64,000 nucleotides of DNA from a virus. Position numbers and translations under genes: made by a program. The stretch covers positions 1,549 through 65,548 of IMG/VR virus record IMGVR_UViG_3300012928_002096. The stretch is one strand, 5' to 3'. Under the pieces are notes generated by a model that saw only the letters and a program-made list of their open reading frames with translations, had not been told where the DNA came from and ran no database searches. Positions 5,238 through 57,792 of this stretch are shown here, piece by piece. The stretch's first letter is position 1. The number at the start of each line of letters is the position of its first letter.

Positions 5238-5264
5238 TAAATATATAAAACTATTGAGGATAAA

Positions 5265-5759: not shown

Positions 5760-5760
5760 T

Positions 5761-6357: not shown

Positions 6358-6386
6358 ATAAATACATTTGTATACAGGAGACTACA

Positions 6387-7037: not shown

Positions 7038-7056
7038 TATTTCTATTAAATAATAG

Positions 7057-8385: not shown

Positions 8386-8393
8386 ATTAAGGA

Positions 8394-9530
8394 GTGTTAT
8401 ACTATAATATGACTGAAGACTTGAAATGGAGCAACTATGACTTCACGAAAATACCCTTTGATGATATTGTTAGCGTTGGTCAGCGTACTTTATTGTACCG
8501 TGACATATTCACAGTATCTTGGCTCCTCGGAAGATTCTGCAACTACCGATGCAGTTATTGTTGGCCTTATGCCCGTAGTGACCGTAAAGACCATCGTCCT
8601 ACCGAGCTATGCTTACGAACAATCGATGAAATAAAAAGGCAAGCACGTGAGAACGGATTTAATAGTTATCATTTTAGTCTTAGCGGTGGGGAGCCTACTT
8701 TCCATCCTGGCTACTTGGATATTTTACAGCATTTGGCTAATGATGTAGAAAACACAAATTATACTAGTATTCATATGACAAGTAATTGCAGTAGACCTAT
8801 AAAGTGGTTTGAAACATATGTAGAATATGCAAAACCTTTTCATAGAGCAAGTATTACAGCCAGTTTACATACAGAACACTTAAATACAAAGGAGAAGATG
8901 CAGGACTTTGCAGATAAATTAATCCTGTGTCAAGAACACGATGTACAGATTACCATTAATATGGTCATGGTACCTGATTGGTTCGAAAGAGACTGGGAAA
9001 ACGCACTGTTCTTCCACGAACAAGGAATCAACGTCACACTCAAGCCGCAATCCGATCCAACGGCTAGTAAAGTGGTTGAAGGGTACAAAGAAGAAGACCT
9101 AAAACGTTTATGGAACGGAATGCCTCAAAGAGCGTACACTGAAAGTAAAAGGCAGTGGAAAGGTAGACCTAAACCTAAATTTGAAGTTCCTAAAGATATG
9201 ATGTATATGCCAGATGCAAGTGTGCCTTGGCATATGCAAGTGGAATTTAGAGATAAAGCAGGAACAGCTTGGTATATGGATCAAGCAGAAAGATTCAACG
9301 CTTTTAATTTTAACAAATTTAAAGGATGGAAATGCAATGCAGGATATCAAGGAATTATTATTAGAGAGCCTGATGGAAGTATCAAACGTAGTTATTCTTG
9401 TCACGATGTTCCACTTGGCAACATAGAAACAGGATTTAAGTTATTTGATCATCCTATGCCTTGTATCACTGAAAGTTGTGTTAGTAGTGCAGATAGTAAA
9501 ATACCAAAAAGGAAAGAAAATGCATTATAA
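8394..9530 (+). CDS. Radical SAM protein with C-terminal SPASM-like domain
   Basis: CNYRCSYC, LSGGEPT, FKGWKCNAG...SYSC...PCITESC; paralog of 2313-3494. Confidence 0.9.
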   Translation: MLYYNMTEDLKWSNYDFTKIPFDDIVSVGQRTLLYRDIFTVSWLLGRFCNYRCSYCWPYARSDRKDHRPTELCLRTIDEIKRQARENGFNSYHFSLSGGEPTFHPGYLDILQHLANDVENTNYTSIHMTSNCSRPIKWFETYVEYAKPFHRASITASLHTEHLNTKEKMQDFADKLILCQEHDVQITINMVMVPDWFERDWENALFFHEQGINVTLKPQSDPTASKVVEGYKEEDLKRLWNGMPQRAYTESKRQWKGRPKPKFEVPKDMMYMPDASVPWHMQVEFRDKAGTAWYMDQAERFNAFNFNKFKGWKCNAGYQGIIIREPDGSIKRSYSCHDVPLGNIETGFKLFDHPMPCITESCVSSADSKIPKRKENAL

Positions 9531-14591: not shown

Positions 14592-15316
14592 CATATGTTG
14601 ATAAAAATGATTGGGTGTTTGATACAAAACAACTACAAACAGAGTTGCAAAAATTATTAGAAGAAAATAAAGTCAACAATCAACGAGATGGCAGTTTACA
14701 CGGGTTATGCCTAACTTCGCAGGACGGCAGTTTATACAATGGATTTAATTTTAATGTTGCTATACAATATCCTCCGTATGAACAACAAGATAAACAAGAT
14801 CCTAATCCTAAAATTTATTTTGATTTAGAATACGCTAAACAAAACAACATATATCATATGCTTGACTATGAAGTAGAAACAAATGCTTGTACAGGTATAT
14901 GGAAAGAAATAATAGACTTTTTGTACAGTAAAGGAATGAATCCACGTAGAGTAAGACTTTCTTACTTACCACCAGAAGGTGTTATTAATACACATAGCGA
15001 TGGAGGCGGATATAAATTTCATATACCGATATACACAGATGGTACAGATTTTGTACACGGAGACGAATCTTACACATTAGAAGAAGGTGGTAGTTATCTA
15101 GCAAGTGTTAATCCTTATCATTATGTAAAAAATAATGGTGACACAGATAGATGGCATCTAGTTGCTGATGTTTGGGACACAGTAGGAAACTTTAGGATTG
15201 GAAAAGTAGGGCAAGACGAATTTAATAATGAAAAAGTAAATGCAAAACTATGGCGTGATTATGTTAACGGAAAAATAGACACACCAAATAAAATTTTATT
15301 AGGAGCTGAAAACTAA
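14588..15316 (+). CDS. AspH-like 2OG-Fe(II) oxygenase
   Basis: RVRLS...NTHSD...KFHIP...YHYVKNNGDTDRWHLV. Confidence 0.8.
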   Translation: MTYVDKNDWVFDTKQLQTELQKLLEENKVNNQRDGSLHGLCLTSQDGSLYNGFNFNVAIQYPPYEQQDKQDPNPKIYFDLEYAKQNNIYHMLDYEVETNACTGIWKEIIDFLYSKGMNPRRVRLSYLPPEGVINTHSDGGGYKFHIPIYTDGTDFVHGDESYTLEEGGSYLASVNPYHYVKNNGDTDRWHLVADVWDTVGNFRIGKVGQDEFNNEKVNAKLWRDYVNGKIDTPNKILLGAEN

Positions 15317-16152
15317 TGCAAATGGACGCAGTAAGATATGAAATAGATTTTAACACTATGAGTGACTCAGAAATTGTAAACTGGGGTAAAAATATAGTAA
15401 AAGATAATGTTGTACTTGTTAGAAACCAAAACCTAGACGAAGCAGGCATACTAAGAGTTTGTGAATTAGTTGGCAATGTGCTGAAACCAAATCAATTTTT
15501 TATGCATCCAGATTACCCTGGCTTATTTAGAGTAACAAACGAACGTAAGGATGGCGATAAGATTGGTATCTTTGCAGACAAAGAACTAGACTGGCACAGT
15601 AACGGTAATGGTAGGAAAAGCGGCAAAGAGTGTTGTGTAGCCTTATATTGTATTCGTCCTGGTGAAAACAGTGTAACTAGTTTTTGTGATACTAGACAAG
15701 CATATAGAGATCTAAGCGAAGAAGATAAAAACTTTTACAAGCAAATAGATTGTACATTTAAATTTGAGAACGGAACATTTTATGACTTAGACGAAGATGA
15801 CAAAGAATTAAAAATGTTTCAAGGTGGCGCAAGAGATTTCAAGTATGGTGTTACAAAACCTTTGGTATATACGCATCCATATGATGGTGATGAAGGATTG
15901 TACTTTACATTTCATTACATTAGAGAAATGTGGCTTAGAGATAATCCAGAAGAGAAGTTGGACAAGCAACCTATCTTTGATAAATTAATGGCACATATTT
16001 TCCAAGACAAATATATTTGGCATCACGATGATTGGCAACCAGGTGATTTTATTTTTATGGATCAGTTTCATAGTATTCATAAACGTAATGCAGTCGAAGG
16101 TGATAGATTCTTATATAGACTAAGTTTTGATTATGAAGGTTGTTATGGATAA
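15316..16152 (+). CDS. TauD/TfdA-family dioxygenase
   Basis: DWHSN, TSFCDT, HPYDG, WQPGDFIFMDQ...HKR. Confidence 0.8.
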   Translation: MQMDAVRYEIDFNTMSDSEIVNWGKNIVKDNVVLVRNQNLDEAGILRVCELVGNVLKPNQFFMHPDYPGLFRVTNERKDGDKIGIFADKELDWHSNGNGRKSGKECCVALYCIRPGENSVTSFCDTRQAYRDLSEEDKNFYKQIDCTFKFENGTFYDLDEDDKELKMFQGGARDFKYGVTKPLVYTHPYDGDEGLYFTFHYIREMWLRDNPEEKLDKQPIFDKLMAHIFQDKYIWHHDDWQPGDFIFMDQFHSIHKRNAVEGDRFLYRLSFDYEGCYG

Positions 16153-16847: not shown

Positions 16848-17518
16848 ATAGATTGAGATATAAATTCGGAGATAGATTTGCAGAAACTAAAGGATACGAT
16901 GGGTTTGCTGCTGATAAAGATGAATTAAATAACTTCTTTGAACAAAAGGTAAAAGGAAAATTAGGTGATCATAACACTGTTGGTATAGATAGTACAAAGC
17001 AACATATATACAATGTTTGTTATGATTGTAATATACCTTTATGGAACGAAATATATAATCGTGTTACAAATATAGGTACGATGTGTGATGTAAAACTAAA
17101 TTGGGATGAAATAAAACATTGTATGCGTTTTACTTTTATATGGATGCCGCCAGGAGGAGATCTTACTCCACACACAGCTCATTACTTCAGAGCATTAAGT
17201 GCATTCAATACACCATTACGTGGCAAAACAGAAATAAGTTTCTACGAACATTTACCACAAGAAGATGGAACACACAAAGTCGGCAAAAAATTAGAAACGC
17301 ACGAATATTTCAATCCTAATTTTTTAAATGTAAATCGTTATCACGGTGTTGCAAATGATACAGAAGAAGAACGTATGATATTAAAAACACATTTACTTAT
17401 TGTGCCTTGGCAAAAACTTGTTAAAGCATACGAAGGTGATGATATTATTAATATGTTTGAAGAAACAGTTCCTTGGCAAAAACAAAAGAAAGAAACACAA
17501 GTCAAACGTCATGGATAA
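16844..17518 (+). CDS. 2OG-Fe(II)-like oxygenase with HxA motif
   Basis: MPPGGDLTPHTAH...FNTPL...LNVNRYHGV...RMILK. Confidence 0.6.
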   Translation: MNRLRYKFGDRFAETKGYDGFAADKDELNNFFEQKVKGKLGDHNTVGIDSTKQHIYNVCYDCNIPLWNEIYNRVTNIGTMCDVKLNWDEIKHCMRFTFIWMPPGGDLTPHTAHYFRALSAFNTPLRGKTEISFYEHLPQEDGTHKVGKKLETHEYFNPNFLNVNRYHGVANDTEEERMILKTHLLIVPWQKLVKAYEGDDIINMFEETVPWQKQKKETQVKRHG

Positions 17519-18299
17519 TTTTAACAAAGAAGAAATAATTAATCACGCACGTGAACACGGATGGTGGTTACAAAGAGATGTGCAAATGGATAGGAAGCAA
17601 TTTATGGAGTTTTGTAACCATATTGCTACACCTTGGTCGTGGAAAATACACGATATGCACGGAGAAGGCGATCTTAACGAAGAAGAAGTTGTAGATTGGT
17701 CAAGTGAAACTAGATTTATGAAACGTAGTTTGCCTTGGCACGCTGATAATCCTTGGAGTAAAGATTTTCAGTTTCCTTTACGTGCATTTTATGCAGTAAA
17801 TATACCTGATCCAAAAGACGGACCTTTAGAGTTTCTTAATCAAACAAAATGGTTTGAATCACTTGGCGAAAATCAAAAAGCAGACTTTAGATATATGAAA
17901 GTACTTGTGCAATGCTACAAAGGAAATTGCCAACCTTATTACGATGACTTTGTAAAAGTAAATCCAATTACAGGTAAAGAAAGTTTAAACTGGGGAAGTA
18001 AAGTTGTATACAGCGATGTATATGGGTTAGAACCTGATGAAGGACACGCACATAATCATTTTTCATTTACAATGGCAATTATGCGTGATAGGAATATTGT
18101 TCCTGATGAAGAAATATCTACTTGGTTTCAAGATATGATAGATAAAGGGCATCACGATATTGTTGAATTTAAAGAAGGTGATCTGCTTGTTAATGATAAT
18201 TGGACAACATTTCATTATAGAAGAACATTAACAAACCCTAACGAACGTTTACTTTATAGGAAAACATTGTTGCAACCATGGCAAAAATATATTGGCTAA
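17511..18299 (+). CDS. TauD/TfdA-family dioxygenase
   Basis: WHADN, NPITG, EFKEGDLLVNDNWTTFHYR...RLLYR; start moved to ATG 17511. Confidence 0.8.
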   Translation: MDNFNKEEIINHAREHGWWLQRDVQMDRKQFMEFCNHIATPWSWKIHDMHGEGDLNEEEVVDWSSETRFMKRSLPWHADNPWSKDFQFPLRAFYAVNIPDPKDGPLEFLNQTKWFESLGENQKADFRYMKVLVQCYKGNCQPYYDDFVKVNPITGKESLNWGSKVVYSDVYGLEPDEGHAHNHFSFTMAIMRDRNIVPDEEISTWFQDMIDKGHHDIVEFKEGDLLVNDNWTTFHYRRTLTNPNERLLYRKTLLQPWQKYIG

Positions 18300-18742
18300 C
18301 GATAAATGTAATTGGAAAAGATAATTATTTTAATGATTATCTCACAAATCCAGCAAAAAGATTTCAAACTGGTACAGGTAAAGCCTTAGGCAAAGATTAC
18401 TGGAAAATGTATGAACAGGCATATTTGTATGCTAAACACCAAGGACATATTATACTACGAGCAAAAGTTATTAACAAACGTAACGTGTTAAAAATATATC
18501 AAATATGGGATAGTAAAGATGTTCGTGAACAATGGGAACAAAAAGTTGATCCTAAATACTTTACTGCAACAGTACCACTTATTACATATCAATATCCTGT
18601 AAATGAAAAACAAAAAAACAAAATATTTGACTTAGTATTAAAAAGTAATAAAGTAATTTTACAGGCAGTAAGAGAAGATCATAGAACGCCAGGAATGACT
18701 ATAGGCGATCCTTTAAAGTTAGATGTACTTTATAAAACTTAA
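18278..18742 (+). CDS. Hypothetical protein, last gene of the enzyme island
   Basis: 154-aa ORF overlapping the upstream stop. Confidence 0.6.
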   Translation: MAKIYWLTINVIGKDNYFNDYLTNPAKRFQTGTGKALGKDYWKMYEQAYLYAKHQGHIILRAKVINKRNVLKIYQIWDSKDVREQWEQKVDPKYFTATVPLITYQYPVNEKQKNKIFDLVLKSNKVILQAVREDHRTPGMTIGDPLKLDVLYKT

Positions 18743-20673
18743 AGACCAAATTTACCAGATATATTACTGCTAAAAGGTTTCTCACTTTTCCATAATGGAC
18801 TATGCAAATATTTGTTTGTACTATCCCAAACACTATCATCTTCATCAAAATTTATTTCTGGAGAAACAGTGATAGTTCCTTGCATAGAACTATGGTTGCC
18901 ACAAATGTAATAAAAAGTTCCTGGTAATGTTGGTGTCCATTGTACGCCATTACCGCCGTATGAACCTTGACCTGTTGCGGCCGGAGTTGATACTTGATCG
19001 CCAGTACCAGTAGTTGCAGCATCTTTTATGTATATTGGATGTGTAACCCCTGCATTGTTTGTAATAGTAAGCGTATCTCCTACTTGTACAGCAATACTAT
19101 CATTATTACCTGATACACTACCATTTCTATCTGTTCCACTCATTACATATGCACTTGCTCCACTGTTTGTAGCAGTGATTGCATAAGATTCTGGTGTTGT
19201 TTTATCTGTGTATAGCTGATCACTTTTTGCATTTGCTTCAATATATGTTTTCATTTGTGCTGGTGTCATACCTGGATTTGCTTCTAATATACACGCAACC
19301 ATACCAGCAACTTGTGGTGATGCCATACTAGTACCTGATATTTTCATTAACTTATAATTGCTGTCTAATGGTGAATCAGGTCCGCCATATGTGCTGTATA
19401 ATGCACTTGTACCACCGTTATCAGTTGAACCTACACTTATAATTTCTGTACCTGGAGCAAATATATTTACACCCGGTCCTGCACAACTTGATTCGGCTTT
19501 TTGCTCTTTACTACCTGTATATGTATAATCTACATTTCCTACCATAAATGCATTTTCACTAAAAGGTGAACTACCGCGGAAGATAAATTCTTGAGAGCCA
19601 CTTCCAAATGCACACGTATCATCATAATGTGGGCCACTTGCTTTATCTATGTAATAATAACTGTTTCCTGCTGCTATACAAAATATAATACCAGCATCTA
19701 AACATTCTTGTAAGTCTGTATCTACACTAGCAACACGAACATTTATTCTTCTGTTTAGACCTATTACAGGCACAACACCTACATTAGCCCAAAGATTATT
19801 ACTACTGCTGCCATAATCTGAATAACTCCAACTGTTACCTAAAAAGGAACCACTAGCTGGTGTGCTTCTATTACCACCATAACCCCAACTTGCATTTACA
19901 ACTGTTGGACGTTTGAATCCTGTCTTAGGATCTATAGGCTTGTTGTTATGCCATCCTTTGATAACATCAAAACAATTAGTTACACTAATACCAGTACCCG
20001 AATCTCCTGTGCCTTCTAAACCAGCTACTTTTACAGAATATATGTGTGCATCTTTAGCCCAACCTTGTGTGCGGCCTGCTACTGTACCTGCACAATGACT
20101 TCCGTGACTGTCATAGTCTCTATAATGGTTAGCACTTTGTGATCCTGCAAGTCCACTTTCTGCGTACCAATCGATTTGCTTTACTCTGCTTATACCTGCA
20201 CTATCTGTAAATTCAGGATGATCAACTTGTAGTCCGCTGTCTTGTATTACAACGTCTACACCTTTTCCTGTAAGTGTATAATTAAATTGCTCTGTAATTG
20301 TTGCTGTACCATCAAAAACATCAAAGCCTTTAGCACATCTTATCAAACCCCAATTTAAATCGTTTGAGTTTCCGCTTTGAGTATTCTTTTTCCAATTAGC
20401 ACCACCTTGAAATGCATTAAACCCAATATCTATATCTTCTCTATCTTGTGGTGGTATTTGTACATCTACTACCCTATTATCACCTCTAAGTGCAGTAGCT
20501 TCTGCATCTGTTAATGCATAGTGTGTATTTCTTTGACTTAACGGTCTTGCATTTGCAACGTCTACTGTTCTATTTGGTATATCTCCAGCACCAGTTGATG
20601 CTATCATTTCTGCATTAAATGCATCGTAGTCTACACCTGCTTTAAGTGTGACAATATACTCTTTCTCGCTCAT
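18739..20673 (-). CDS. Subtilisin-like S8 serine protease with C-terminal cupredoxin-like domain
   Basis: Triad IQDSG / HGSHCAG / GTSMASP; HP...YYICGNHSSM type-1 Cu ligands. Confidence 0.9.
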   Translation of the reverse strand: MSEKEYIVTLKAGVDYDAFNAEMIASTGAGDIPNRTVDVANARPLSQRNTHYALTDAEATALRGDNRVVDVQIPPQDREDIDIGFNAFQGGANWKKNTQSGNSNDLNWGLIRCAKGFDVFDGTATITEQFNYTLTGKGVDVVIQDSGLQVDHPEFTDSAGISRVKQIDWYAESGLAGSQSANHYRDYDSHGSHCAGTVAGRTQGWAKDAHIYSVKVAGLEGTGDSGTGISVTNCFDVIKGWHNNKPIDPKTGFKRPTVVNASWGYGGNRSTPASGSFLGNSWSYSDYGSSSNNLWANVGVVPVIGLNRRINVRVASVDTDLQECLDAGIIFCIAAGNSYYYIDKASGPHYDDTCAFGSGSQEFIFRGSSPFSENAFMVGNVDYTYTGSKEQKAESSCAGPGVNIFAPGTEIISVGSTDNGGTSALYSTYGGPDSPLDSNYKLMKISGTSMASPQVAGMVACILEANPGMTPAQMKTYIEANAKSDQLYTDKTTPESYAITATNSGASAYVMSGTDRNGSVSGNNDSIAVQVGDTLTITNNAGVTHPIYIKDAATTGTGDQVSTPAATGQGSYGGNGVQWTPTLPGTFYYICGNHSSMQGTITVSPEINFDEDDSVWDSTNKYLHSPLWKSEKPFSSNISGKFGL

Positions 20674-38384: not shown

Positions 38385-39842
38385 TTAGATCTCCTCAAAT
38401 AGTTCTCCGAACTTTGTGCTTGCGTTTACAGTCTTTTTTCCTACATTAAGTCTTGTGCCTATAACTTGCATCCAAAACTTAGAATATTTTGTTATTAAAT
38501 CTAAACTTTTTTGTCTATCTTTTAAACTAAAGATCTCATCAACAACTTGTTTAAACTCTATACGTTCAAAACGTTCGTCAATCAACATATAAGGATATTC
38601 TCCTGTGTCATAACGTTCGTTTGCTCGTTGTGTGCTTTCAATGTGCATCCATACATTATGACCCATTTGTAATGCATAACTAAATGAGTCCCAACTTGTT
38701 TTGCCTTCTTTACCAATTTTATTCAAATCGCCTGGTTTGTAAATACAAATGTCTTTTATTTGACATTCTTTACTAATAGGAGAGTCTTCAAATGCTTTCA
38801 AAAGACCATCTGTTTCAAGTGCATCTTTAAATGTTCTTGTGTCTGTTGCATACTTCTTATCATCAGCGCCTGGCGACATCATATAACTCCACTTGCCACG
38901 ATCTTCAATACGTATTGTGTGATAAACTTGTCCATTTGCTGTTGCTAAGAAAGGCGATGCACAGTCATATGTAATCATAAAGTTTTTATTATGATACTTA
39001 CGCACTGCACGTTGGATATCTGTAAGCAATACAGCCCATTCTAACTTACTTGTGCCTAAGAAGTGCATAACATCGTGAACACCTTCTTCTAGTAACCCAT
39101 CGTGTATTTGATGCACAAGTCTACGCAATATCAAATCAACATCGCACATATTTTGTCCACCCATTGCCCAGCCATTAAAGTGTGTATCTGGAAACTGTGC
39201 TGGATCGCAATAGTGCTTGAACTCTTCATACCAACTATCTGCATCTGCGTGGTTACTACCTTGTAATACGTTCAGCACTTTGAAGTTGCCACGTCTATTT
39301 GCCATATAGTATTTTGCGTTTATGTGTGTTGCATCTACAGCATCTTGATAACTGTGAATATTTGCTGCCTTTGCTGCCTTAGGATCTTGGAAAGTCCAAG
39401 TTGGAATATCCAACATCATTCCATAGTCCATATATTCTTCCATCCAGTTAACAACAAGTTCACGTTTCTTTTGTGCTTTTGGACATTTAGGATTAGTCCA
39501 GTCACCTTCCCAAAGTCCTTTTGCAATTTGGAAACCACCAGAGTCACCAAGCAACCAACTATTTTCTCTATCGCGGTTGCGTAACATATCTTCTTTTTCT
39601 ACGTGTTTGTTTATATCTAAGTCTGCGTGTCCTGCAGAATACAAAGCCCACTTATAATGAAATGCTCCTTTATCAGGATTCAAAAAGTTTAGACTTTCTA
39701 CTTCATTAAGTCCAGATGGCACACGATTGTAATCAACGTATTCACCGAAACGTTGTTTACCTACAAATGTAGCATAAAAGCCACTTATACTTGGCAGAAA
39801 CACAGCATAATCATTCTGTGTTTGTGTTAGATCCTTTTTCAC
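38385..39842 (-). CDS. dpdA: TGT-fold transglycosylase, DpdA-like (7-deazaguanine insertion into DNA)
   Basis: LGDSGGFQ, MMLDIP, NVLQG, GWAMGG, HFLGTS, YDCAS; folE/queE context. Confidence 0.7.
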   Translation of the reverse strand: MKKDLTQTQNDYAVFLPSISGFYATFVGKQRFGEYVDYNRVPSGLNEVESLNFLNPDKGAFHYKWALYSAGHADLDINKHVEKEDMLRNRDRENSWLLGDSGGFQIAKGLWEGDWTNPKCPKAQKKRELVVNWMEEYMDYGMMLDIPTWTFQDPKAAKAANIHSYQDAVDATHINAKYYMANRRGNFKVLNVLQGSNHADADSWYEEFKHYCDPAQFPDTHFNGWAMGGQNMCDVDLILRRLVHQIHDGLLEEGVHDVMHFLGTSKLEWAVLLTDIQRAVRKYHNKNFMITYDCASPFLATANGQVYHTIRIEDRGKWSYMMSPGADDKKYATDTRTFKDALETDGLLKAFEDSPISKECQIKDICIYKPGDLNKIGKEGKTSWDSFSYALQMGHNVWMHIESTQRANERYDTGEYPYMLIDERFERIEFKQVVDEIFSLKDRQKSLDLITKYSKFWMQVIGTRLNVGKKTVNASTKFGELFEEI

Positions 39843-40230
39843 GTATTGCTCTCTTTTCTAAACTTAACTTATCTTTTTGACTCATTACATATGCGGCGCC
39901 TGCAAGAATTAAAATTGCGCCAGCTTCGGCAACTAGCACCCAAGGATTTGCGTCTTTACTGTGTAGCACAATTAATCTACACAATGCTGTCATTGCAATT
40001 ATAATAGGCAATGTAACAGGTATTCTGTTGCTAATAAAGTATGCACCAACCATACCTACAATCTCAGTATATATAAAAAGCAGAAATAAATCTGCAAGTT
40101 CTATCTTAAGATCCATAATCATAGAATATACATCTAAACCTGCCGCAACAACAGTAAGTATGCCTATTATAGAAAGCATACCTTTTTCTGTCATTACTGT
40201 AGTCCAGTGTAATCTATTTTTTTCTTGCAT
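39811..40230 (-). CDS. psiE: PsiE-family membrane protein
   Basis: ADLFLLFIYTEIVGM...IPVTLPIIIAMTALCRLIVL. Confidence 0.8.
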   Translation of the reverse strand: MQEKNRLHWTTVMTEKGMLSIIGILTVVAAGLDVYSMIMDLKIELADLFLLFIYTEIVGMVGAYFISNRIPVTLPIIIAMTALCRLIVLHSKDANPWVLVAEAGAILILAGAAYVMSQKDKLSLEKRAIREKGSNTNTE

Positions 40231-40979: not shown

Positions 40980-41008
40980 ATTATACTAACTTTTGCTTTA
41001 TTTGTCAA
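40980..41008 (-). promoter_or_regulatory. Perfect-consensus sigma70 promoter
   Basis: TTGACA-AATAAAGCAAAAGTTAG-TATAAT. Confidence 0.85.
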
Positions 41009-41759
41009 GTGTTTGTTTCAATTTTGTGTTATAATAAACTGCTGCCGACAATGTATTTAGATTAATATTTTTTTCTGATGCCATTTTTAATAGAGCCTTT
41101 GTGTCTTTTGGAAAACACATTCCACCCCATCCACGTATACCTTCTTCTGGCCATACATAACTATGACTTGAACCTATACGTTTATCATCTGTAATACCTG
41201 CTTGCACTTCTTCATAGTCTAAATTATATGCTTTACAAAAATCAAAAATTTCATTGAAGAAACTTACTTTAGTTGCTAAGAAAGCATTTCTAAAATATTT
41301 TATAGCAATAGCTTCTTCTGGTGTAACAATGTTTATACGGCATTGAGGCCAATTAAAACTATATTGGTCACGCCAGTAATCTGTATCACCACTTAAAATA
41401 ATACAGTCTAATTGTTTAATATCATTCATATAGTTTTTTGCTCTAAGAAACTCTGGAGAAAAACATAATCTATGATTAGGAAAATTATTTTTTATATCTT
41501 GCCAGCCTTGTAAACTTATTGTGCTTTTGATTAATATAGGTGTTGTTTCATTACAAAGTTCTATAGTGCTGTACACAGCACTTACATCACAACTACCATC
41601 TTCTGCTGATGGAGTAGGTACACATATTACCACAGCACTTGTATTTGAAAAATCAGCATATTTGTCTTTAGGTGGATCGTGTATTTCAATTTCTCTTCTA
41701 TGGTCTTTGAATAGTAATTCGTATGCCTGTCCAACAAATCCGTATCCTGCTATAATCAT
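40998..41759 (-). CDS. ugd: UDP-glucose/GDP-mannose 6-dehydrogenase-like (N-terminal and central domains only)
   Basis: IAGYGFVG, ICVPTP, IKSTI, FSPEFLR, KYFRNAFLATKV, GWGGMCFPKD. Confidence 0.85.
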   Translation of the reverse strand: MIIAGYGFVGQAYELLFKDHRREIEIHDPPKDKYADFSNTSAVVICVPTPSAEDGSCDVSAVYSTIELCNETTPILIKSTISLQGWQDIKNNFPNHRLCFSPEFLRAKNYMNDIKQLDCIILSGDTDYWRDQYSFNWPQCRINIVTPEEAIAIKYFRNAFLATKVSFFNEIFDFCKAYNLDYEEVQAGITDDKRIGSSHSYVWPEEGIRGWGGMCFPKDTKALLKMASEKNINLNTLSAAVYYNTKLKQTLDK

Positions 41760-42469
41760 TGTGCTAACTTCGCTTCCTGAAAGTATCCAAGTCTTTCCCA
41801 AGTATCACGATAATCTTTAACATTGAAACAACGTTTTGTATCTAGCTTGACTGCTAATGGCCAATCATTACCACCTTCAACAATTTTGTCACCAAAGAAA
41901 TAAATTTTATCATTCTTGTTAAAATCTTCTAAGATTTGACTTTTATCTCCACCTTTACGATATATGTCTATTCCTGTTTCGCCACCTATAGTTGCAGTTA
42001 TATCAGGAAATTCTAAATTAATTTGGAAAGCAATACTTTCACGTTCTTTGTTTTGCAAATCGTGTTGTATATAAAGTTTACGTTCACCTAGTGTGCAATT
42101 ACGTCCTACTATACTAAAATTAATTGTACCTGTTCTTTCTTCTATATGATTACCTGTACGTAATGGAAAATTACTTGCTTGTAACCAACCGTGCATTAAA
42201 TTATACAATTCTTTAGGAGCATCAAATGTTTTACTTGCTACATTTTGTCCTTTTTTGTAGACATCATTGCCACTGCAATTATAACAAGACTCAACATTTT
42301 CACAAATATCTTCACCAAGCTGTTCGACTGTCTTATTATAATCGCTACCAGTTACTAACCATACTTTATTATGTGTAATAAATGATTTAAAAAATGTTTT
42401 AAACTCTGGATGAATAGTTTGTCTACTTGGTGTAAGTGTGCCGTCAACATCGAATATAAATTTATTCAT
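41756..42469 (-). CDS. Phosphomannomutase (eukaryotic-type, HAD-IIB)
   Basis: FDVDGTLT, VTGSD, IEERTGTINFSIVGR, FFGDK..EGGND. Confidence 0.88.
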   Translation of the reverse strand: MNKFIFDVDGTLTPSRQTIHPEFKTFFKSFITHNKVWLVTGSDYNKTVEQLGEDICENVESCYNCSGNDVYKKGQNVASKTFDAPKELYNLMHGWLQASNFPLRTGNHIEERTGTINFSIVGRNCTLGERKLYIQHDLQNKERESIAFQINLEFPDITATIGGETGIDIYRKGGDKSQILEDFNKNDKIYFFGDKIVEGGNDWPLAVKLDTKRCFNVKDYRDTWERLGYFQEAKLAQ

Positions 42470-42876
42470 TATACTTCACATACTCTCTTTCTTAAATCAC
42501 TAGTGCTAAATCTATGATCACGTTTATTAAAATACAAATCTATTTCACGCTTACGACAAATGTCTTTACCTGTAAAATCTTTGTCTCTGTATTCTTCTCC
42601 AAGTATTCTAACATCTATATGATACATTGTCAATATATCTTCTAGGTCTTTTTCAGTGCCATAAGGAATAATTTCATCAACATACTTTACACCTTTTAAT
42701 TGTGTATAGCGTTCGACAATAGTTTGCACAGGAGCATTTTTTTCTGATCGATCTACACTAGGATCCATTTGTAATGCACATATTAAATAATCGCATTGTT
42801 CTTTTGCTTCACGTAACATTTGTACGTGTCCTGCGTGTAATAAATCAAATGTTGAACAAGTAAATCCTACTTTCAT
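42469..42876 (-). CDS. TagD-like cytidylyltransferase
   Basis: FDLLHAGH (HIGH-type), ERYTQL...VDEII, RFSTS. Confidence 0.88.
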   Translation of the reverse strand: MKVGFTCSTFDLLHAGHVQMLREAKEQCDYLICALQMDPSVDRSEKNAPVQTIVERYTQLKGVKYVDEIIPYGTEKDLEDILTMYHIDVRILGEEYRDKDFTGKDICRKREIDLYFNKRDHRFSTSDLRKRVCEV

Positions 42877-43217
42877 TAATGATTCCGCCTACCATCAAAT
42901 GCACAAACAAAGTAAAGTTCTTGGTCTTTACCTTGATACATATCAGATTCTACTCTATGATGTATACCATCTTTAATCAATACAACATCACCAGGACCAA
43001 CTGCCATAGGCTCATCATTTAGATACATTGTGCCTTTACCTCTAATAAAGAAATAAATTTCTTCTTGTCCTTTGTGTATATGTCCTGACGTAGATTTGCC
43101 AGGCTTCATTGTTGTACTACTTAATACTAAATTTTGTAACAGTGTGTTATCTTTAACAATGTATCGTTCGTCTTGTTTAGCGATAACTCCACCAATATCT
43201 TGTATATCTACTTTCAA
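42876..43217 (-). CDS. Cupin-domain protein (mannose-6-phosphate isomerase-like)
   Basis: GHIHKGQEEIYFFIRG...GDVVLI..GIHHRV. Confidence 0.85.
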   Translation of the reverse strand: MKVDIQDIGGVIAKQDERYIVKDNTLLQNLVLSSTTMKPGKSTSGHIHKGQEEIYFFIRGKGTMYLNDEPMAVGPGDVVLIKDGIHHRVESDMYQGKDQELYFVCAFDGRRNH

Positions 43218-43498
43218 AAGTCTATCTCCCTTCCTTTATATTCCCAAGTTCCATATCTAGTTGGTTCGGCTTCTTTTGGCCCGCCATATTCTTTAGCTTT
43301 TTCTTCTGTAACTTTTTGTTCAGGTATATCAGGGTCTTTACGTGCATATTTTATATCACAATATCCACAAACAACATAATGTCCATCGTGTGGTATTCTA
43401 AGATAAACTTTTGGGTGGTCATTGTTATCTCCACTACACGCAACACTGTCGCCATCTATGTAAATAATGCGTTCTTCAAATCCTTCGATTCTTTCCAT
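43214..43498 (-). CDS. zf-CHCC (NDUFS6-like) + DUF1674 (SdhAF4-like) fusion
   Basis: VACSGDNNDHPKVYL...VVCGYC followed by EYGGPKEAEPTRYGTWEYKGREIDF; GGAG RBS before ATG 43498. Confidence 0.8.
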   Translation of the reverse strand: MERIEGFEERIIYIDGDSVACSGDNNDHPKVYLRIPHDGHYVVCGYCDIKYARKDPDIPEQKVTEEKAKEYGGPKEAEPTRYGTWEYKGREIDF

Positions 43499-43499
43499 A

Positions 43500-46163
43500 T
43501 TAACTCCATTCAAATAAATTGTTAAATGTTGTTTTTTGCTTTGTGCTTTCTAAGTCATATTTCAACACACCAATTAAGTTGTCTAGTTTGTTGTCAATAA
43601 TAACTTCTTCCATTGCATCGCCATCAAAAGGAAGCTCTTTAAACCAATCAGGAAGTCTTAGTTGATCTGTTGGATAAGCAACAGAAGTATATCCTAATGG
43701 ATTTTGTTTCAGTTTACAAACAATAACTTTCATACCATCTACAATTTCTTGGGAATATTTATCACCATTCATACGTTTCAATGTATTCCAGTTGATGCTT
43801 GCTCTTACGTGTCCAGGCATATTTGCTTTGCCTTGCTTTTCTTCTAGTCGTTGATAATGTCCAATCTTGTTTGCACGTTTGGGTGAACCTTTCTCAAATC
43901 CTGGACGTTCTTTAAACTCACGCCTAAATTCACTTATACTTTCTAGTAATTCTTTTTCGGGCTGTACTGCTAATACCATATCAAGCAATGTTTTCAAATA
44001 GTTTTGCATAAACACTGGAGTATCACTACGCTTTAAGTCCAAGCCCATAGCTTTAACTTTACCTAATGCACCATCCTTATCTTTTCTATCACCTTCTAAG
44101 TCATACACTCGCACTGCATAACGTTTCTTTGTAATAAACAAGCCTGTGTCTGCAACAACTTCTCTTGCGGCAGCAATAACCTCACTACGTGGGCGAGGAC
44201 AATGAAATGCGTCACGCATAAAATCTGGAAATGTTGTGTTTGCTTGTTCGCATAACTGGTCATACAATGTAATTACATTATCTTTACCCCAAGGCACAGT
44301 ACCAGCAGTAATTTCTTCTTCAAGTACAGGATACGCACTAAAGTAAACAGAGTCTGTATCACCATATATAATTGCTTTACCTACGTGATCATATTCGCCT
44401 GTAATAATCTTATTCACTTCACTTGCCATATGCTTTGCAATTTGTCTGCCAGTTAGTGTTGTTGACTGTCCAATACGTTTATCAAAAAATCTACAGCCTG
44501 GATTCAAAATAGCACCATACAAACTGTTCAAGTTAATCTTTTTGACAAGTTGTCTTTTGTCCCAAAATGCTATTTCTGTTTCGTTGCCTGCATCAATTGC
44601 TTTACGCATTTTTGCTTGTAATTCTTTACGCTCTGCATACCAACGTTTCAGCAAACCTGGAATAACACCTTCGACTTCTGTTGTAAACACAGTACCGTTA
44701 GCACTAAGCATCCACGGTTGATGGCTATCAAAAATAAGTTTGTATATTTCTGCACCACTTAGCACGTGGCTTGTACCATCTTCTAAATCTAATGTAAGTG
44801 CAACGTCTTTGCGTTGTTCCATTACAGCATCATATTCTAATGTAGCAAACTTACCTTCCCAACTTGCCGCAAAACTTTTCTTTTCAAGTGTTTGTGCATT
44901 GTGTAAAAACTCTTCAGTCAAGTCTGGACGTATTTGTCCAATAATAGTTTCTGGAGCCATATTCATTGCACGAATAATACTTGGATATAGACTGTTCAAG
45001 TCCATACTACCAATCCACTTATGTACACCTTTTTTAGGATACGCAACATAAGCACCTGCCGCGGCAGTTTGCCCTTCGTGTTGTACTCTGTTAGGTGCTT
45101 GCATACCTCTTCTGTGTGCTTCATTAACAATTGCTTGCTCTGTAACTGCAACTGCTCCTGCTGTTGTTTGTAATAACACAGTATTATCGTGTGCAATTTC
45201 ATTTGCAAGATCAATAAAGCGTAACTTCTTATCAATTTTATCTAGTAGTGCAACGTCTTGTCTATTGTATTCAATAAACTTTTTAAAGTCGTTGTTGTAA
45301 AGTTGATCAAGTGTGCCTTCATACACAGTCTTGTTTTCACCAACTTCCATTTCACCAATAGCATCAAGTCTGTATGTGTGACGTTCTTCATATGTATATT
45401 TGCGATACAGTTCAAGATAGTCCATATGCACTCTACCTATTGTATCAAACGTTTCAGCAGTTTTGCCAAACTTTTCAAACTCTCTACGTCTTGGAAGTTG
45501 CTTCCACAAACAAAAGCGCCTAGTGTCATCTTTGCTCAACACCCGTGAAACACGATTTACAGTGTAAGGAATATCATAACCTTCACTGTTCCAGCCGCTC
45601 AATATATCTGCATCTTCTATAACATCAAGAAATGCTTGTAGCATATCTCCTTCATTTTCATACAAATATGTATTATCAAAATCTGCACATTCTGCTTGTG
45701 CTTCTTCCATAGTTAGTGTTTTGGGCGGCAATGCAAATGTTACCAATGCATCTAACCATTGTAAATGCACAGTAATAGCAGTAATTGGCATAAAAGGATC
45801 GCTTGGATCAGCAAAGCCTCTATCTGGATCAAAATCAGTCTCAATATCAAAAAAGCAAACATTTAGTTTAGGAGCATCTTGGTTGAGATAGTGTTCACTC
45901 AAACATTGAAATATTGGATTTACATCCGACTCAAACATTTTTTTGCCTTTGTTAATGGCAAGTTCTTTTCTAAAATCTTTTGTATTTTTACAAACTACAC
46001 GTTGTAGTGGATCTCCATAAATGCTTTTGTATTTGCCACGTGGATCTTCATAGTAAAATGTATACTTTGCTTGATATTCAGTAAAATGCCTTTTACCATC
46101 CTTGCGTTCTACTGCACGGATAATATCTGCATCTCTATCAAAAAAAGCGTCTACGTATGGCAT
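43500..46163 (-). CDS. polB: Family B DNA polymerase
   Basis: Exo FDIETD, NSEGYD; Pol DLNSLYPS, KINLNSLYG, YGDTDS. Confidence 0.97.
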   Translation of the reverse strand: MPYVDAFFDRDADIIRAVERKDGKRHFTEYQAKYTFYYEDPRGKYKSIYGDPLQRVVCKNTKDFRKELAINKGKKMFESDVNPIFQCLSEHYLNQDAPKLNVCFFDIETDFDPDRGFADPSDPFMPITAITVHLQWLDALVTFALPPKTLTMEEAQAECADFDNTYLYENEGDMLQAFLDVIEDADILSGWNSEGYDIPYTVNRVSRVLSKDDTRRFCLWKQLPRRREFEKFGKTAETFDTIGRVHMDYLELYRKYTYEERHTYRLDAIGEMEVGENKTVYEGTLDQLYNNDFKKFIEYNRQDVALLDKIDKKLRFIDLANEIAHDNTVLLQTTAGAVAVTEQAIVNEAHRRGMQAPNRVQHEGQTAAAGAYVAYPKKGVHKWIGSMDLNSLYPSIIRAMNMAPETIIGQIRPDLTEEFLHNAQTLEKKSFAASWEGKFATLEYDAVMEQRKDVALTLDLEDGTSHVLSGAEIYKLIFDSHQPWMLSANGTVFTTEVEGVIPGLLKRWYAERKELQAKMRKAIDAGNETEIAFWDKRQLVKKINLNSLYGAILNPGCRFFDKRIGQSTTLTGRQIAKHMASEVNKIITGEYDHVGKAIIYGDTDSVYFSAYPVLEEEITAGTVPWGKDNVITLYDQLCEQANTTFPDFMRDAFHCPRPRSEVIAAAREVVADTGLFITKKRYAVRVYDLEGDRKDKDGALGKVKAMGLDLKRSDTPVFMQNYLKTLLDMVLAVQPEKELLESISEFRREFKERPGFEKGSPKRANKIGHYQRLEEKQGKANMPGHVRASINWNTLKRMNGDKYSQEIVDGMKVIVCKLKQNPLGYTSVAYPTDQLRLPDWFKELPFDGDAMEEVIIDNKLDNLIGVLKYDLESTKQKTTFNNLFEWS

Positions 46164-54869: not shown

Positions 54870-55559
54870 CTATTTATCTGTAAAAACTAATTGCTCTATC
54901 CTTTGTATATTATCCCCAACTAACATTTGAGCTATTAGTAATGTTTTAGCGTCACGTACATAAAAGTAGTAACCTTTAACATATCTACTATTTGTAATAC
55001 TTTCTTTGGCTTTGTCACCTATCTTTGCCAGGTGTGGATTTTCGTCTATCCATTTTACTAAGCTAGGTGTTCCTAACTTCTTTCCAAGTGTTACTTTATA
55101 CTGATATTGCGGTTCTTTGTCAACTAAAATAACATTTTTATTTTCTTGTAAAAATTGTATTTGTAAAGGATCGGGTTCATAAAACTCCACCCAATTTTCT
55201 TTGATATTATTTGATAAACTTGTTAAGAACTTCCTATCATTGCTGTATAAATTGAGTCTATGCATTTCAACTCGCACTAAGTAATCTACATCATTCCTTA
55301 TTAAATGTCTGTAAATTGTTATTGCATCATAATAATGTTTTGTATCAATAGATTCTTTAAATCTACTGCCAACAGGTAATGTTATTTGAGGTTTTCTAAA
55401 ATTATGATATCTGTTACATTCATCTAGCTTGCCTTTTGCATAACTTAATGTGCCTTCTTTTTGAAACTCAGTACGGAAAAAAGTAGCACATTGATTACGT
55501 ATACAAAGTTTGTAAAGATACTTGTTATAATGTAACTTTTTACTTTCATACAGTTTCAT
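54870..55559 (-). CDS. Hypothetical protein
   Basis: 229-aa ORF coupled to clpA. Confidence 0.7.
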   Translation of the reverse strand: MKLYESKKLHYNKYLYKLCIRNQCATFFRTEFQKEGTLSYAKGKLDECNRYHNFRKPQITLPVGSRFKESIDTKHYYDAITIYRHLIRNDVDYLVRVEMHRLNLYSNDRKFLTSLSNNIKENWVEFYEPDPLQIQFLQENKNVILVDKEPQYQYKVTLGKKLGTPSLVKWIDENPHLAKIGDKAKESITNSRYVKGYYFYVRDAKTLLIAQMLVGDNIQRIEQLVFTDK

Positions 55560-57792
55560 TTTCTTCTACCAAACAATCTAATTTGATTTCATCTTCTCTG
55601 AAATCGATTGTAACACTTCCGCCATTTTTAAGTTCACCAAAAAGTATTTTTTTACTTAGAGGACGTTTAATTTGTGCATCAATTACACGCTGTAACGGTC
55701 TTGCACCCATTTTAGGATTGAATCCTTTGTCAACTAAGAAGTCAAGAGCTTCGTCAGTAATGTCAATAGCAATATCTTTTTCTTGTACTTGTTGTTTTAG
55801 CTCTAGTAAAAACTTACCTACAATTTTCATCATTACTGGCTTGTCAAGTTTACCAAATGTAATAACACCATCTAGCCTGTTTCTAAACTCAGGTGGAAAA
55901 TATTTTTTAAAGTCAGTATCTTCATAGTCTTTATCGCTATCTTCACCAAAACCAATTGCATTTTTCTCAGCATCTTGTGACCCTAAGTTAGTAGTTAGTA
56001 TAAGTGTAGCATTACGTGCATCTGCTTCTTTACCGTTACTGCCTGTTACTCTACCATTGTCCATAATTTGTAACAAAATAGTGCTGATGTCTGGATGTGC
56101 TTTTTCTATTTCATCTAAAAGTAATACACAGTTTGGATTTTCTTGCAGTTTAGTAATAAGTTGGCCTGCGTCTTCTTCAAAACCTACATAACCTGGAGGC
56201 GAGCCAATCAGTTTACTAATACTATGCTTTTCTTGGAATTCACTCATATCAAAACGCACAAGTTTTACACCCAAATGATGTGCTAGTTGCTTGCTTAGTT
56301 CTGTTTTACCAACACCTGTTGGACCCATAAACACAAAACTACCAATTGGTTTGTTTTCACTTTTTAGTCCTGCTTGTGCTACTAAGATTTTATCAACAAT
56401 ATCTTCGATAGCATTGTCTTGACCATACACAACTGTTTTTAGATTATCTTCTAAGTTTGCTAAGTTTTCGCTTTCACGTTCTTTTACCTGTTCTTCAGGC
56501 AAGTTAATCATTTTTGCTAATTCAAACTGTATACTTTCTTCAGTTACAACTTTATTTTCAACTTGATCATTTACTTTGAATCTACTACAAGCAACATCAA
56601 TCAAATCTATTGCTTTATCAGGCAATTTTTTATCAGTTTGATATTTTACGCTAAGTTTTACGGCTGCGTTTATTGCTTCTTCTGTAATAGTAGTATTATG
56701 ATAACTTTCATAATATTGTTTAATACCTTTAAGTATTCTTACAGTGTTTTCTTGTGAAGGTTCGTCAACATTTACCCTTTGAAATCTTCTCATCAACGCA
56801 CGATCTTTTTCAAAGAACTTACGATACTCTTCCCAAGTTGTACTTGCAACAACTTTCAAGTTACCTTTAGTCAAAGCAGGCTTTAACATATTTGCCATAT
56901 CATTTGCACTGTTACTACCGCTTGCACCAGCACCACTTATCATATGTGCTTCGTCGATAAACATAATAGTTTTGCCTTTTTTCTGCAATGCAGAAATAAC
57001 CAACTTGAAACGCTCTTCAAAATCTCCTCTATACTTTGATCCTGCTAACATACTGCCAATATCCAATGTATAAACATTGTATTCTTTTAAAAACTCTGGT
57101 ACACTTCCGTGGACAATATTGTATGCAAGTCCTTCAGCAATAGCAGTCTTACCCACACCTGGTTCACCAACCATTAGCACATTACTTTTGCTTCTTCTAC
57201 CAAGTGCAAGTGCTACTTGCTCTAGTTCTTCACTGCGTCCAATAATAGGATCAATTTTATTATTTTTAACAAGACTGTTTAAGTCGCTTGTAAACTCTTT
57301 TAGTGCTTTATTAGCAATACCCATATTTTCTTGTGGGTTGTCATCGTCACTTCTATCAAATTCTGTGCTAATATAGTCTGCAAATTGCTGTTTATTTACA
57401 CCAGCCTGCTGTGTAATAAAATACGCATAACTTTTCTTTTCACTTAGTATACTTAGAAATACATCTGATATTTCTATCATATTACGCATACTAAACAATA
57501 CTTGTGTAAACGCTCTATTCAATACACGTTCTACTGTTTGTGTCTTAGCAGGTTTATATTCTTTACCTTTCTCAACTAAAATATTATCAAGTTTAGTTCT
57601 GAGATAATTTTCCAAATTCTTTTTAATATATTCAACGTCTGTGCCAAATCCTGTGACAAGTTCACTGAAATTATTTTCACACAACATTGCATATAGTAAA
57701 TGTTCTAATGTCACATACTCGTGACGTAGTTTTACTGCGTCTTTGACTACTTTATCAAATACAAGTTGTAATTCTTTAGACGGTTCTACCAT
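55546..57792 (-). CDS. clpA: ATP-dependent Clp protease ATP-binding subunit ClpA
   Basis: Clp_N (HEYVTLEHLL), two AAA modules (GEPGVGKT, GPTGVGKT), IGF ClpP-docking loop (NAIGFG), MGARPL. Confidence 0.95.
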   Translation of the reverse strand: MVEPSKELQLVFDKVVKDAVKLRHEYVTLEHLLYAMLCENNFSELVTGFGTDVEYIKKNLENYLRTKLDNILVEKGKEYKPAKTQTVERVLNRAFTQVLFSMRNMIEISDVFLSILSEKKSYAYFITQQAGVNKQQFADYISTEFDRSDDDNPQENMGIANKALKEFTSDLNSLVKNNKIDPIIGRSEELEQVALALGRRSKSNVLMVGEPGVGKTAIAEGLAYNIVHGSVPEFLKEYNVYTLDIGSMLAGSKYRGDFEERFKLVISALQKKGKTIMFIDEAHMISGAGASGSNSANDMANMLKPALTKGNLKVVASTTWEEYRKFFEKDRALMRRFQRVNVDEPSQENTVRILKGIKQYYESYHNTTITEEAINAAVKLSVKYQTDKKLPDKAIDLIDVACSRFKVNDQVENKVVTEESIQFELAKMINLPEEQVKERESENLANLEDNLKTVVYGQDNAIEDIVDKILVAQAGLKSENKPIGSFVFMGPTGVGKTELSKQLAHHLGVKLVRFDMSEFQEKHSISKLIGSPPGYVGFEEDAGQLITKLQENPNCVLLLDEIEKAHPDISTILLQIMDNGRVTGSNGKEADARNATLILTTNLGSQDAEKNAIGFGEDSDKDYEDTDFKKYFPPEFRNRLDGVITFGKLDKPVMMKIVGKFLLELKQQVQEKDIAIDITDEALDFLVDKGFNPKMGARPLQRVIDAQIKRPLSKKILFGELKNGGSVTIDFREDEIKLDCLVEENETV

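Follow-up and report, generated by a model that had tools for sequence, protein, structure and literature searches.

The subject of this analysis is a small gene in a 64,000-nucleotide stretch of viral DNA (positions 1,549 to 65,548 of IMG/VR record IMGVR_UViG_3300012928_002096; this whole stretch is referred to below as the window). The gene encodes a 94-amino-acid (aa) protein that joins a zinc finger of the zf-CHCC/NDUFS6 family (accessory proteins of respiratory complex I) to a C-terminal tail of the DUF1674/SDHAF4 family (assembly factors of complex II), and it is no isolated case: zf-CHCC and DUF1674 genes are repeatedly paired in marine viruses, and this gene is the fused form of such a pair. 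We judge it to have about an even chance that the product is a fused respiratory accessory module, which would act in support of complex I and SdhA of the infected host.

The open reading frame (ORF) was read from the window sequence on the minus strand, from an ATG at 43498 to a TGA at 43214-43216; the strand had not been given in the original prediction, which was made from the sequence without database searches. An in-frame TTG at 43513, earlier than this ATG, is not kept in the relatives, all of which start at the methionine of the 94-aa form. The stop codon of a family B DNA polymerase gene, which adjoins upstream as had been predicted, lies only 1 nucleotide (nt) ahead of the ATG and therefore the two genes were taken as one operon; the TTG start of the following cupin gene overlaps the fusion-gene stop. 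A hidden Markov model (HMM) check of the proposed single-ORF fusion was run, and both Pfam models passed their curated cut-offs: zf-CHCC (PF10276) with 38.3 bits (cut-off 27) over residues 17-51 (profile positions 2-37 of 37) and DUF1674 (PF07896) with 46.4 bits (cut-off 23.5) over residues 54-94 (profile positions 10-50 of 50). Neither match can be put down to chance (E = 5e-12 for DUF1674 and 1.4e-9 for zf-CHCC), and the precomputed annotation of the identical protein on other contigs also names both families. The ORF is a genuine phage gene with its own ribosome-binding site.

The identical protein was found on 78 marine contigs (the longest of 214 kb), and at all places examined for it, Tara Oceans assemblies included, the polymerase-fusion-cupin operon is the same. 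Nine IMG/VR contigs carry alleles that are 70-97% identical and occur in two length forms (94 and 81 aa), set apart by a clean, in-frame deletion of 13 linker residues. An allele with 91% identity (L004) lies in entirely different phage gene surroundings, and a tenth fused allele (L135) is more divergent (51% identity). Pairwise ratios of non-synonymous to synonymous substitution rates (dN/dS) ranged over 0.02-0.27 in the zinc-finger half and over 0-0.06 in the tail, synonymous change being nearly saturated, and therefore both halves are maintained by selection.

The N-terminal half is a member of the zf-CHCC/NDUFS6 family, and its association with complex I is predicted from homology. The CHCC ligands reported in the original prediction are present and their pattern was right except for the first spacing, given as C-x7-H, which was off by one (the true pattern is C-x6-H-x15-C-x2-C); among 22 phage homologues C21, H28 and C44 are invariant and C47 is nearly so. 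This half aligns to the nuclear magnetic resonance structures 2jrr and 2jvm and to chain R of 8qby (8qby_R), from complex I of Paracoccus denitrificans. In an AlphaFold2 model, four strands are predicted in the zinc-finger half at a predicted local distance difference test score (pLDDT) of about 70, and the tail is disordered (pLDDT <50 from residue 59 on); the model of the whole protein is of low confidence (mean pLDDT 57.7), and its zinc-finger part, of moderate confidence, was used alone. The best PDB match of this part in Foldseek was again 8qby_R (root-mean-square deviation of 1.9 Å over 47 columns, probability 1.0, E 2.9e-3), followed by more than 30 further NDUFS6 chains from many complex I structures. 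The P. denitrificans protein (Pd-NDUFS6) is a zinc-binding four-strand sandwich that touches mainly NDUFS1 and NDUFS8 and stabilises the N-module, and its Asp48 forms a Ca2+ bridge to NDUFS8 (PMC11522691); Asp48 of the phage protein aligns with this residue. The phage half thus resembles NDUFS6/NUMM/Pd-NDUFS6 in the HMM match, the CHCC ligands, the Asp after CxxC and the predicted four-strand fold, and with about 55 residues it equals in size the bacterial stand-alone form, which is without the mitochondrial N-terminal domain. It differs in being phage-encoded, in a Cys-His loop (C-x6-H) 2-3 residues shorter than that of cellular homologues and in the C-terminal extension, which sets it apart from the cellular bacterial forms. 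The phage zinc finger falls into a short-loop clade of its own, and the four members of this clade with examined contexts are all on phage-like contigs.

The C-terminal half is a divergent member of the SDHAF4/DUF1674 family, for which SdhA binding and handover to SdhB are predicted on the grounds of homology. It aligns to human SDHAF4 (8dyd chain C); as in SDHAF4/Sdh8 (PF07896; 8dyd/8dye chain C, 2k5k), its 25 C-terminal residues match the only ordered, functional region of the family and the tail is predicted to be disordered when free. In the human SDHAF4-SDHA structure SDHAF4 is ordered in its last 34 residues only, D107 takes the place of a dicarboxylate at SDHA His407 and Arg451, F108 blocks the substrate site, E84 and E92 contact SDHA Arg171, and the position of SDHAF4 on SDHA clashes with that of SDHB; mutating E84, E92, D107 or F108 impairs SDHA binding or SDHAF2 displacement (PMC10784507). 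All four of these mutation-tested residues are retained in the phage tail (E70, E78, D93 and F94, respectively), E70 and E78 being invariant in the tail alignment (A2), and the terminal Phe directly precedes the stop codon, in agreement with the predicted motif ending exactly at the C-terminus. On the side of the partner, the equivalents of human T308, D194, H407 and R451, mapped by alignment offset, are invariant in five alphaproteobacterial SdhAs. Apart from being phage-encoded and from carrying a folded zinc finger in place of the usual low-complexity N-terminal region, the protein differs from SDHAF4 in Thr for the Asp that contacts the catalytic Thr, in Glu for Cys105 and in Tyr or Asn for R101. 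The first of these changes had already been noticed: Thr84 stands where cellular homologues carry the Asp of GDWE. Thr is found at this position in every one of the ten fused alleles and in another 20 phage tails, and since all 80 cellular loci have Asp there (GDW) and Cys, Ala or Val at the position of human Cys105, the Thr/Glu signature marks a phage lineage. The tail was treated as a divergent member, and not excluded from the family, because D98 (the human counterpart of Thr84) is a conserved contact that the mutagenesis left untouched (PMC10784507). A complex prediction for tail residues 57-94 with the SdhA of a low-GC alphaproteobacterial genome scored 0.00 in both runs, which gives no verdict and is evidence for neither side.

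The fusion was also sought in cells, where, according to the original prediction, the two families are normally separate genes. HMMER searches against 1.84 billion representative proteins gave 175 matches, each over one half only and none a cellular fusion, although the fusion cluster itself is missing from what the 50%-representative library behind this search lists. The tail alignment, scanned against one genome per species, picked out more than 466 DUF1674 loci among Alpha- and Gammaproteobacteria; of these, the best 80 are tail-only matches with no zinc finger within 3 kb, and in 301 sampled genomes of the class of an alphaproteobacterium (G004) no listed match takes in the zinc finger. 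Four extended DUF1674 matches in cellular genomes were rejected as fusions, being plain DUF1674 proteins without a zinc finger, and a further candidate (L033) was rejected on inspection. In a profile word search of 5.8 billion proteins, which did not list two known fusion clusters, the phage cluster was the sole one listed with both families. As these searches can miss fusions, a cellular fusion counts as not found rather than proven absent; nothing was seen of a fusion that is common in hosts and simply transduced. The two families do co-occur in cells: the DUF1674-bearing genomes examined carry zf-CHCC elsewhere (5 of 5 and 4 of 5 genomes), separate and unlinked, as had been expected. Long cellular proteins with DUF1674 were also observed on Mb-scale contigs, namely FMN_dh with DUF1674 (P0375, P0387 and P0449), DUF1674 with shikimate dehydrogenase (P0356 and P0366) and DUF1674 with Wzy_C (P0358 and P0382). 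Some of them may be gene-call mergers, because the Asp-Phe would not be free in those with DUF1674 listed first, but the existence of others (e.g. FMN_dh-DUF1674) means that the promiscuity of the tail is not purely viral.

A pattern scan of IMG/VR yielded at least 117 viral loci with a DUF1674 tail and a second scan at least 125 viral loci with the phage-type zinc finger; architectures and linkage were counted in the best 80 loci of each set. The N-terminal parts that precede the viral tail are: (i) a short stand-alone protein (32 loci), (ii) zf-CHCC (10), (iii) 2OG-FeII_Oxy_5 (8), (iv) a coiled-coil peptide (5), (v) a transmembrane (TM) helix with a Cys motif (4), (vi) a C5 DNA methylase (4), (vii) an unknown 253-aa part (3), (viii) NUDIX (3), (ix) a CxC-rich peptide (3), (x) an Asp/Arg hydroxylase-like domain (2), (xi) an IscA-type Fe-S_biosyn domain (2), (xii) an unknown 168-175-aa part (2), (xiii) Lipase_3 (1) and (xiv) an unknown 111-aa part (1). 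Hence 48 of the 80 tails are joined to N-terminal parts of no fewer than 11 kinds, and every architecture except those with Lipase_3 and the 111-aa part is present on more than one contig. The fusions to 2OG-FeII_Oxy_5, Fe-S_biosyn, C5 DNA methylase, NUDIX, Lipase_3 and Asp/Arg hydroxylase-like domains were confirmed with Pfam (loci L126-L205; examples in Table 1). The window's protein is similar to these viral proteins (with 2-oxoglutarate (2OG) oxygenase, IscA, NUDIX, methylase or lipase) and to the bacterial FMN_dh proteins in that the tail is appended to a folded N-terminal domain; it differs from them in that its partner is itself an accessory protein of a respiratory complex, and in that the same two genes also stand adjacent, as separate genes, in other viruses.

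Such split pairs occur in both orders, with the zinc finger followed by DUF1674 (L198 and L139) or DUF1674 followed by the zinc finger (L154, L159 and L160), and in all five the frames of the two genes share 4-16 nt. Taken together, 15 of the 80 viral DUF1674 tails have zf-CHCC fused (10 loci) or adjacent (5 loci) to them vs none of the 80 cellular ones, for which a wider flank was searched (Fisher p = 3e-5), and this viral linkage extends to two tail lineages. Traces of how the genes came together are seen in the divergent fused allele L135, whose zinc finger resembles that of the split pair L139 and whose linker segment resembles the N-terminal region of a stand-alone phage DUF1674 protein, P0043 (both by eye, unscored); such a linker remnant is as expected if a whole neighbouring gene was merged. 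A segment 'YPDGYS.EW' is common to P0043 (residues 44-60), where it precedes the tail of the stand-alone DUF1674, and to P0020 (residues 3-19), where it precedes the zinc finger, with 59% identity over 17 residues, and this suggests past shuffling between the two genes. As the most likely origin, two adjacent phage genes would have merged within the phage gene pool, after which the linker was trimmed, and the 94-aa form of the window and the 81-aa form look like later stages of this trimming.

Four or more other C-terminal tails are found on phage zinc fingers, and Asp-Phe is again the ending of one of them. P0024 and P0037 (contigs L099 and L100; clusters of 462 and 30 members) are zf-CHCC proteins in phage context with another tail that ends in Asn-Asp-Phe and may be a second dicarboxylate-mimic-like tail; P0013, P0016 and P0017 are zinc-finger proteins with a 'SWEDETV...' tail. 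Among the viral tails, proteins of about 81 aa (L139 1656-1898 and L183 1315-1560, also L188 and L190) combine an N-terminal TM helix and GSCGG..C..C with the phage-type SDHAF4 tail. Identity of this TM-helix and Cys partner with NqrM, a protein of Na+-NQR maturation, is not claimed, as its Pfam score was about 10 bits vs a cut-off of 22 (E 0.5-0.7), and it also gave a sub-threshold match to a family of FeoB-associated Cys-rich proteins. The contigs with zinc-finger-only relatives are phage-like. On one of them (L101; 345.6 kb, probably a jumbo phage), genes for heme oxygenase, ferredoxin-dependent bilin reductase, CsgF, CsgG, curlin-repeat proteins and orotidine monophosphate decarboxylase (genes at 468-7173 and 8001-8896) surround the zinc-finger-only gene. 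Curli, radical-SAM and lipopolysaccharide genes are reported features of marine pelagimyophages (PMC7029224); no CsgG was found in the viral records examined.

The source of the window is a 67-kb viral record with a CheckV completeness of 19%, and the genome, that of an uncultured marine jumbo phage, would therefore be of about 350 kb. The G+C content of the window is 35% and no tRNAs were found in it. The nearest cultured relatives of the polymerase are those of two jumbo phages, Sinorhizobium phage Phosso (50% identity) and Agrobacterium phage Atu_ph07 (48%). The fusion gave no tblastn match in INPHARED (cultured phages), no PHROG family was found for it or its stand-alone relatives, and a comparison with NCBIfam gave no match. 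The gene qualifies as a phage auxiliary metabolic gene in that it lies on a viral record with phage replication genes, has cellular homologues of both halves and is under purifying selection. The coordinates of the gene, its parts and its neighbours, and of the viral loci used for comparison, are collected in Table 1.

Table 1. Coordinates of the fusion gene, its parts and neighbours (positions in the window) and of selected viral loci (positions on the named locus)
Feature	Position	Strand	Evidence
Fusion gene P0001 (94 aa, TGA stop included): NDUFS6-type zinc finger, linker and SDHAF4-type C-terminal tail	43214..43498	-	sequence, Pfam, 78 contigs, dN/dS
GGAG ribosome-binding site, 5 nt 5' of the fusion-gene ATG, within the final codons of the DNA polymerase gene	43504..43507	-	read directly from sequence
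zf-CHCC domain, residues 17-51	43346..43450	-	Pfam, PDB sequence matches, AlphaFold2 model, Foldseek
Zinc ligand codon C21	43436-43438	-	
Zinc ligand codon H28	43415-43417	-	
Zinc ligand codon C44	43367-43369	-	
Zinc ligand codon C47	43358-43360	-	
Asp48 codon, directly after C47	43355-43357	-	
Variable linker, residues 52-69 (13-residue block missing from 81-aa alleles)	43292..43345	-	allele alignment
SDHAF4/DUF1674 core tail, residues 70-94, free C-terminal Asp-Phe; phage-type T84, Y87, E91	43217..43291	-	Pfam, 8dyd_C alignment
Family B DNA polymerase, directly upstream of the fusion gene	43500..46163	-	sequence comparison, conserved order on other contigs
Co-oriented downstream genes: cupin, cytidylyltransferase, phosphomannomutase, UDP-glucose dehydrogenase	40998..43217	-	same order on related contigs
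Split pair, L198	682-1013		
Split pair, L154	481-766		
Split pair, L159	1444-1955		
Split pair, L139	1501-1901		
Other tail fusion, L155	886-1593		
Other tail fusion, L172	1240-1752		
Other tail fusion, L191	394-1581		
Other tail fusion, L169	1123-1674		
Other tail fusion, L149	712-1587		
Other tail fusion, L146	901-1587		

Several further genes of the window were recorded. A homologue of the phosphate-starvation-inducible PsiE lies downstream of the fusion gene (39811-40230, minus strand), and its arrangement with the four-gene sugar-nucleotide cluster (40998-43217) is kept in related contigs. A co-oriented block of five radical-SAM ORFs in a row (235-9530, plus strand), one of them with a SPASM domain, is possibly a peptide- or sugar-modification cluster. 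Two 2OG-dependent dioxygenases of the TauD/TfdA family, i.e. succinate-producing enzymes, are encoded at 15316-16152 and 17439-18299 (plus strand). On the minus strand, a 644-aa ORF (18739-20673) has both a subtilase domain and a copper-binding domain of the plastocyanin/azurin-like type, and a 748-aa ORF (55546-57792) encodes a ClpB/ClpA-type double AAA+ chaperone with a Clp_N domain.

The host is probably an alpha- or gammaproteobacterium, the assignment being no finer than this. An alphaproteobacterial host, as first proposed, is plausible but only partly supported, because DUF1674 and zf-CHCC also co-occur in Gammaproteobacteria, and the polymerase relatives in rhizobial phages, taken as a host clue, are of only 48-50% identity. 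A low-GC genome of 1.4 Mb from the class-level sample around the alphaproteobacterium G004 (G201) has the two small genes, with 39% identity between its zinc finger and that of the phage, and its DUF1674 tail has an ending common to one viral stand-alone lineage. A metagenome-assembled genome (MAG) of Cryomorphaceae (Bacteroidota) was not taken as evidence of the host: the link is P0191, a 59-aa zinc-finger-only member of the 90% cluster of the fusion, listed at NCBI as a hypothetical protein of that MAG, into which a phage contig was probably mis-binned.

The mechanism that we favour is the following. The phage would make the fusion protein together with its DNA polymerase, and expression during replication fits the co-transcription of the two genes. 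The zinc finger would bind the NuoG/NuoI face of host complex I (NDUFS1/NDUFS8) and stabilise the module that oxidises reduced nicotinamide adenine dinucleotide (NADH), and the disordered tail would cap flavinylated SdhA, with the terminal Asp-Phe in the dicarboxylate site and flavin adenine dinucleotide (FAD) shielded until SdhB docks. The catalytic heads of complexes I and II would in this way stay assembled and their flavins be kept from side reactions as the gene expression of the host breaks down, and NADH and succinate oxidation could be sustained through a long infection. The fusion itself may mainly guarantee co-expression of two tiny proteins, without a physical bridge between the complexes, because split pairs exist in both orders and the length of the linker is free. 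A link to succinate handling is hinted at by the 2OG dioxygenases of the phage and by the 2OG oxygenase-tail fusions elsewhere. Which partners the protein binds, whether it supports them rather than blocks them and what benefit this has are inferred from homology, the retained contact residues and gene linkage.

A number of observations weigh against such a supportive role in both complexes. Human D98, whose counterpart in the phage is Thr, forms a hydrogen bond to the catalytic Thr308 of SDHA, and R101, replaced by Tyr, Asn or other residues in phage tails, forms a salt bridge to SDHA Asp194; the third changed residue, Cys105 (Glu in the phage tail), makes a backbone contact only (contact list in the supplement of PMC10784507). 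As these changes are conserved in the phage lineage, an altered and not host-like function is possible. Furthermore, since the tail joins many unrelated partners, viral and cellular, a fusion partner need not be functionally related, and this promiscuity tempers the reading of the protein as a hijacker of both complexes. Of the 80 viral zinc-finger loci, 70 have the zinc finger only, with no DUF1674 nearby, and 10 are fused. No homologue of SdhE/Sdh5, NDUFA12 or NDUFS4 was found in the viral fragments examined, and that the host has an NDUFS6-type complex I and an SDHAF4-dependent succinate dehydrogenase (SDH) is an assumption.

The same residues can be read as those of an antagonist. The protein might be a dominant-negative mimic whose tail plugs the dicarboxylate site and keeps SdhA from SdhB and whose zinc finger competes with the NDUFS6-type subunit of the host, so that respiration and the tricarboxylic acid cycle are throttled or re-routed. 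The terminal Asp of human SDHAF4 mimics a dicarboxylate, its Phe blocks the site and the factor clashes with the position of SDHB, all of which would suit an inhibitor, as would the shorter Cys-His loop of the phage zinc finger and the conserved phage substitutions of two side chains that contact SDHA and of the Cys residue, which occur in no sampled cellular locus. However, all four residues tested as essential in SDHAF4 are kept, hence there is no signature of a loss of release; blocking new SDH assembly would be slow relative to the infection cycle; and marine phage auxiliary genes more often sustain the energy supply of the host. Antagonism is therefore regarded as unlikely, though as an alternative to be reckoned with.

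Another reading is that the tail is a portable tag, i.e. a general C-terminal docking or regulatory peptide, which recruits its carrier to SdhA or folds back as a dicarboxylate mimic, the zinc finger having a phage-specific role that is not in complex I; the apparent pairing of complexes I and II would then be no more than a chance agreement of family names. The distribution of 48 of 80 viral tails over at least 11 N-terminal parts, some of them enzymes with no respiratory role, is consistent with this, and so are the two partner types that are 2OG oxygenases and make succinate, the four or more alternative tails of the phage zinc fingers (one ending in Asp-Phe) and the separate short-loop clade of the latter with its four phage-like contexts. 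What argues for a specific link is the enrichment of zf-CHCC beside or fused to viral DUF1674 (15/80 vs 0/80 in cells), in both orders and in two tail lineages, and the zinc finger has kept Asp48, the Ca2+-bridging residue of Pd-NDUFS6. A mere tag is accordingly considered rather unlikely. A bolder extension, which we hold to be speculative and quite unlikely, is that ocean phages use the SDHAF4 tail of about 25 residues as a portable handle on host SdhA, for an NDUFS6-like subunit, an iron-sulphur carrier, 2OG oxygenases, membrane anchors and DNA- or nucleotide-modifying enzymes; phage functions would then be wired to the succinate/FAD node, and viruses would have a hitherto overlooked strategy for control of respiratory-chain assembly, with the window's gene as its most frequent example.

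It is highly improbable that the protein is a physical tether, with the zinc finger on complex I and the tail holding SdhA, thus bringing SdhA to the NADH dehydrogenase arm or to the membrane. Tails also stand behind predicted membrane anchors (L139, L183, L188 and L190; P0048) and a short flexible linker is conserved in two lengths, but the split adjacent pairs in both orders indicate that covalent linkage is not required, the 13-residue linker deletion indicates that distance is unconstrained, and no beneficiary of such a bridge is known. Finally, a non-functional ORF (a chimera of the assembly, a product of read-through or a gene in decay), of which a truncated, apparently frameshifted variant in metagenomes (P0018, 48 aa) might be a sign, is effectively excluded by the presence of the same fused ORF in many independent assemblies and samples, the in-frame linker indel, the strong purifying selection on both halves and the gene's own ribosome-binding site.

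Cyanophage psbA and PTOX are phage auxiliary metabolic genes that sustain the energy conversion of the host. The supportive module favoured here would be comparable to them in that a marine phage carries, together with its replication genes, a gene of host type for a minor component of a membrane complex that converts energy, but it differs in concerning factors for the assembly or accessory function of complexes I and II of respiration and not photosynthetic core subunits. The family of each half is already known, as are fusions of DUF1674 tails to other domains. In contrast, there is apparently no earlier description of viral genes of either family, of their repeated linkage in viruses or of the zf-CHCC-DUF1674 fusion: the literature searches gave only mitochondrial or unrelated papers, no report of DUF1674/SDHAF4 or zf-CHCC/NDUFS6 as viral auxiliary genes was found, and the pelagimyophage survey (PMC7029224) mentions neither family.

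The viral gene pair is a new, testable lead. The natural variants of the tail (Asp to Thr, Cys to Glu) and its fusions may be used to probe the contact between the SDHAF4 tail and SdhA in bacteria, in which this family has not been characterised. For mitochondrial biology, the viral pair and its fusion provide independent genomic evidence that both 'mitochondrial-type' factors share one context. If the halves act like their cellular relatives, phages would manipulate the assembly or stability of both respiratory electron-entry complexes in abundant ocean heterotrophs, and this would be a respiratory counterpart of the photosystem genes of cyanophages, with effects on carbon processing in infected cells.

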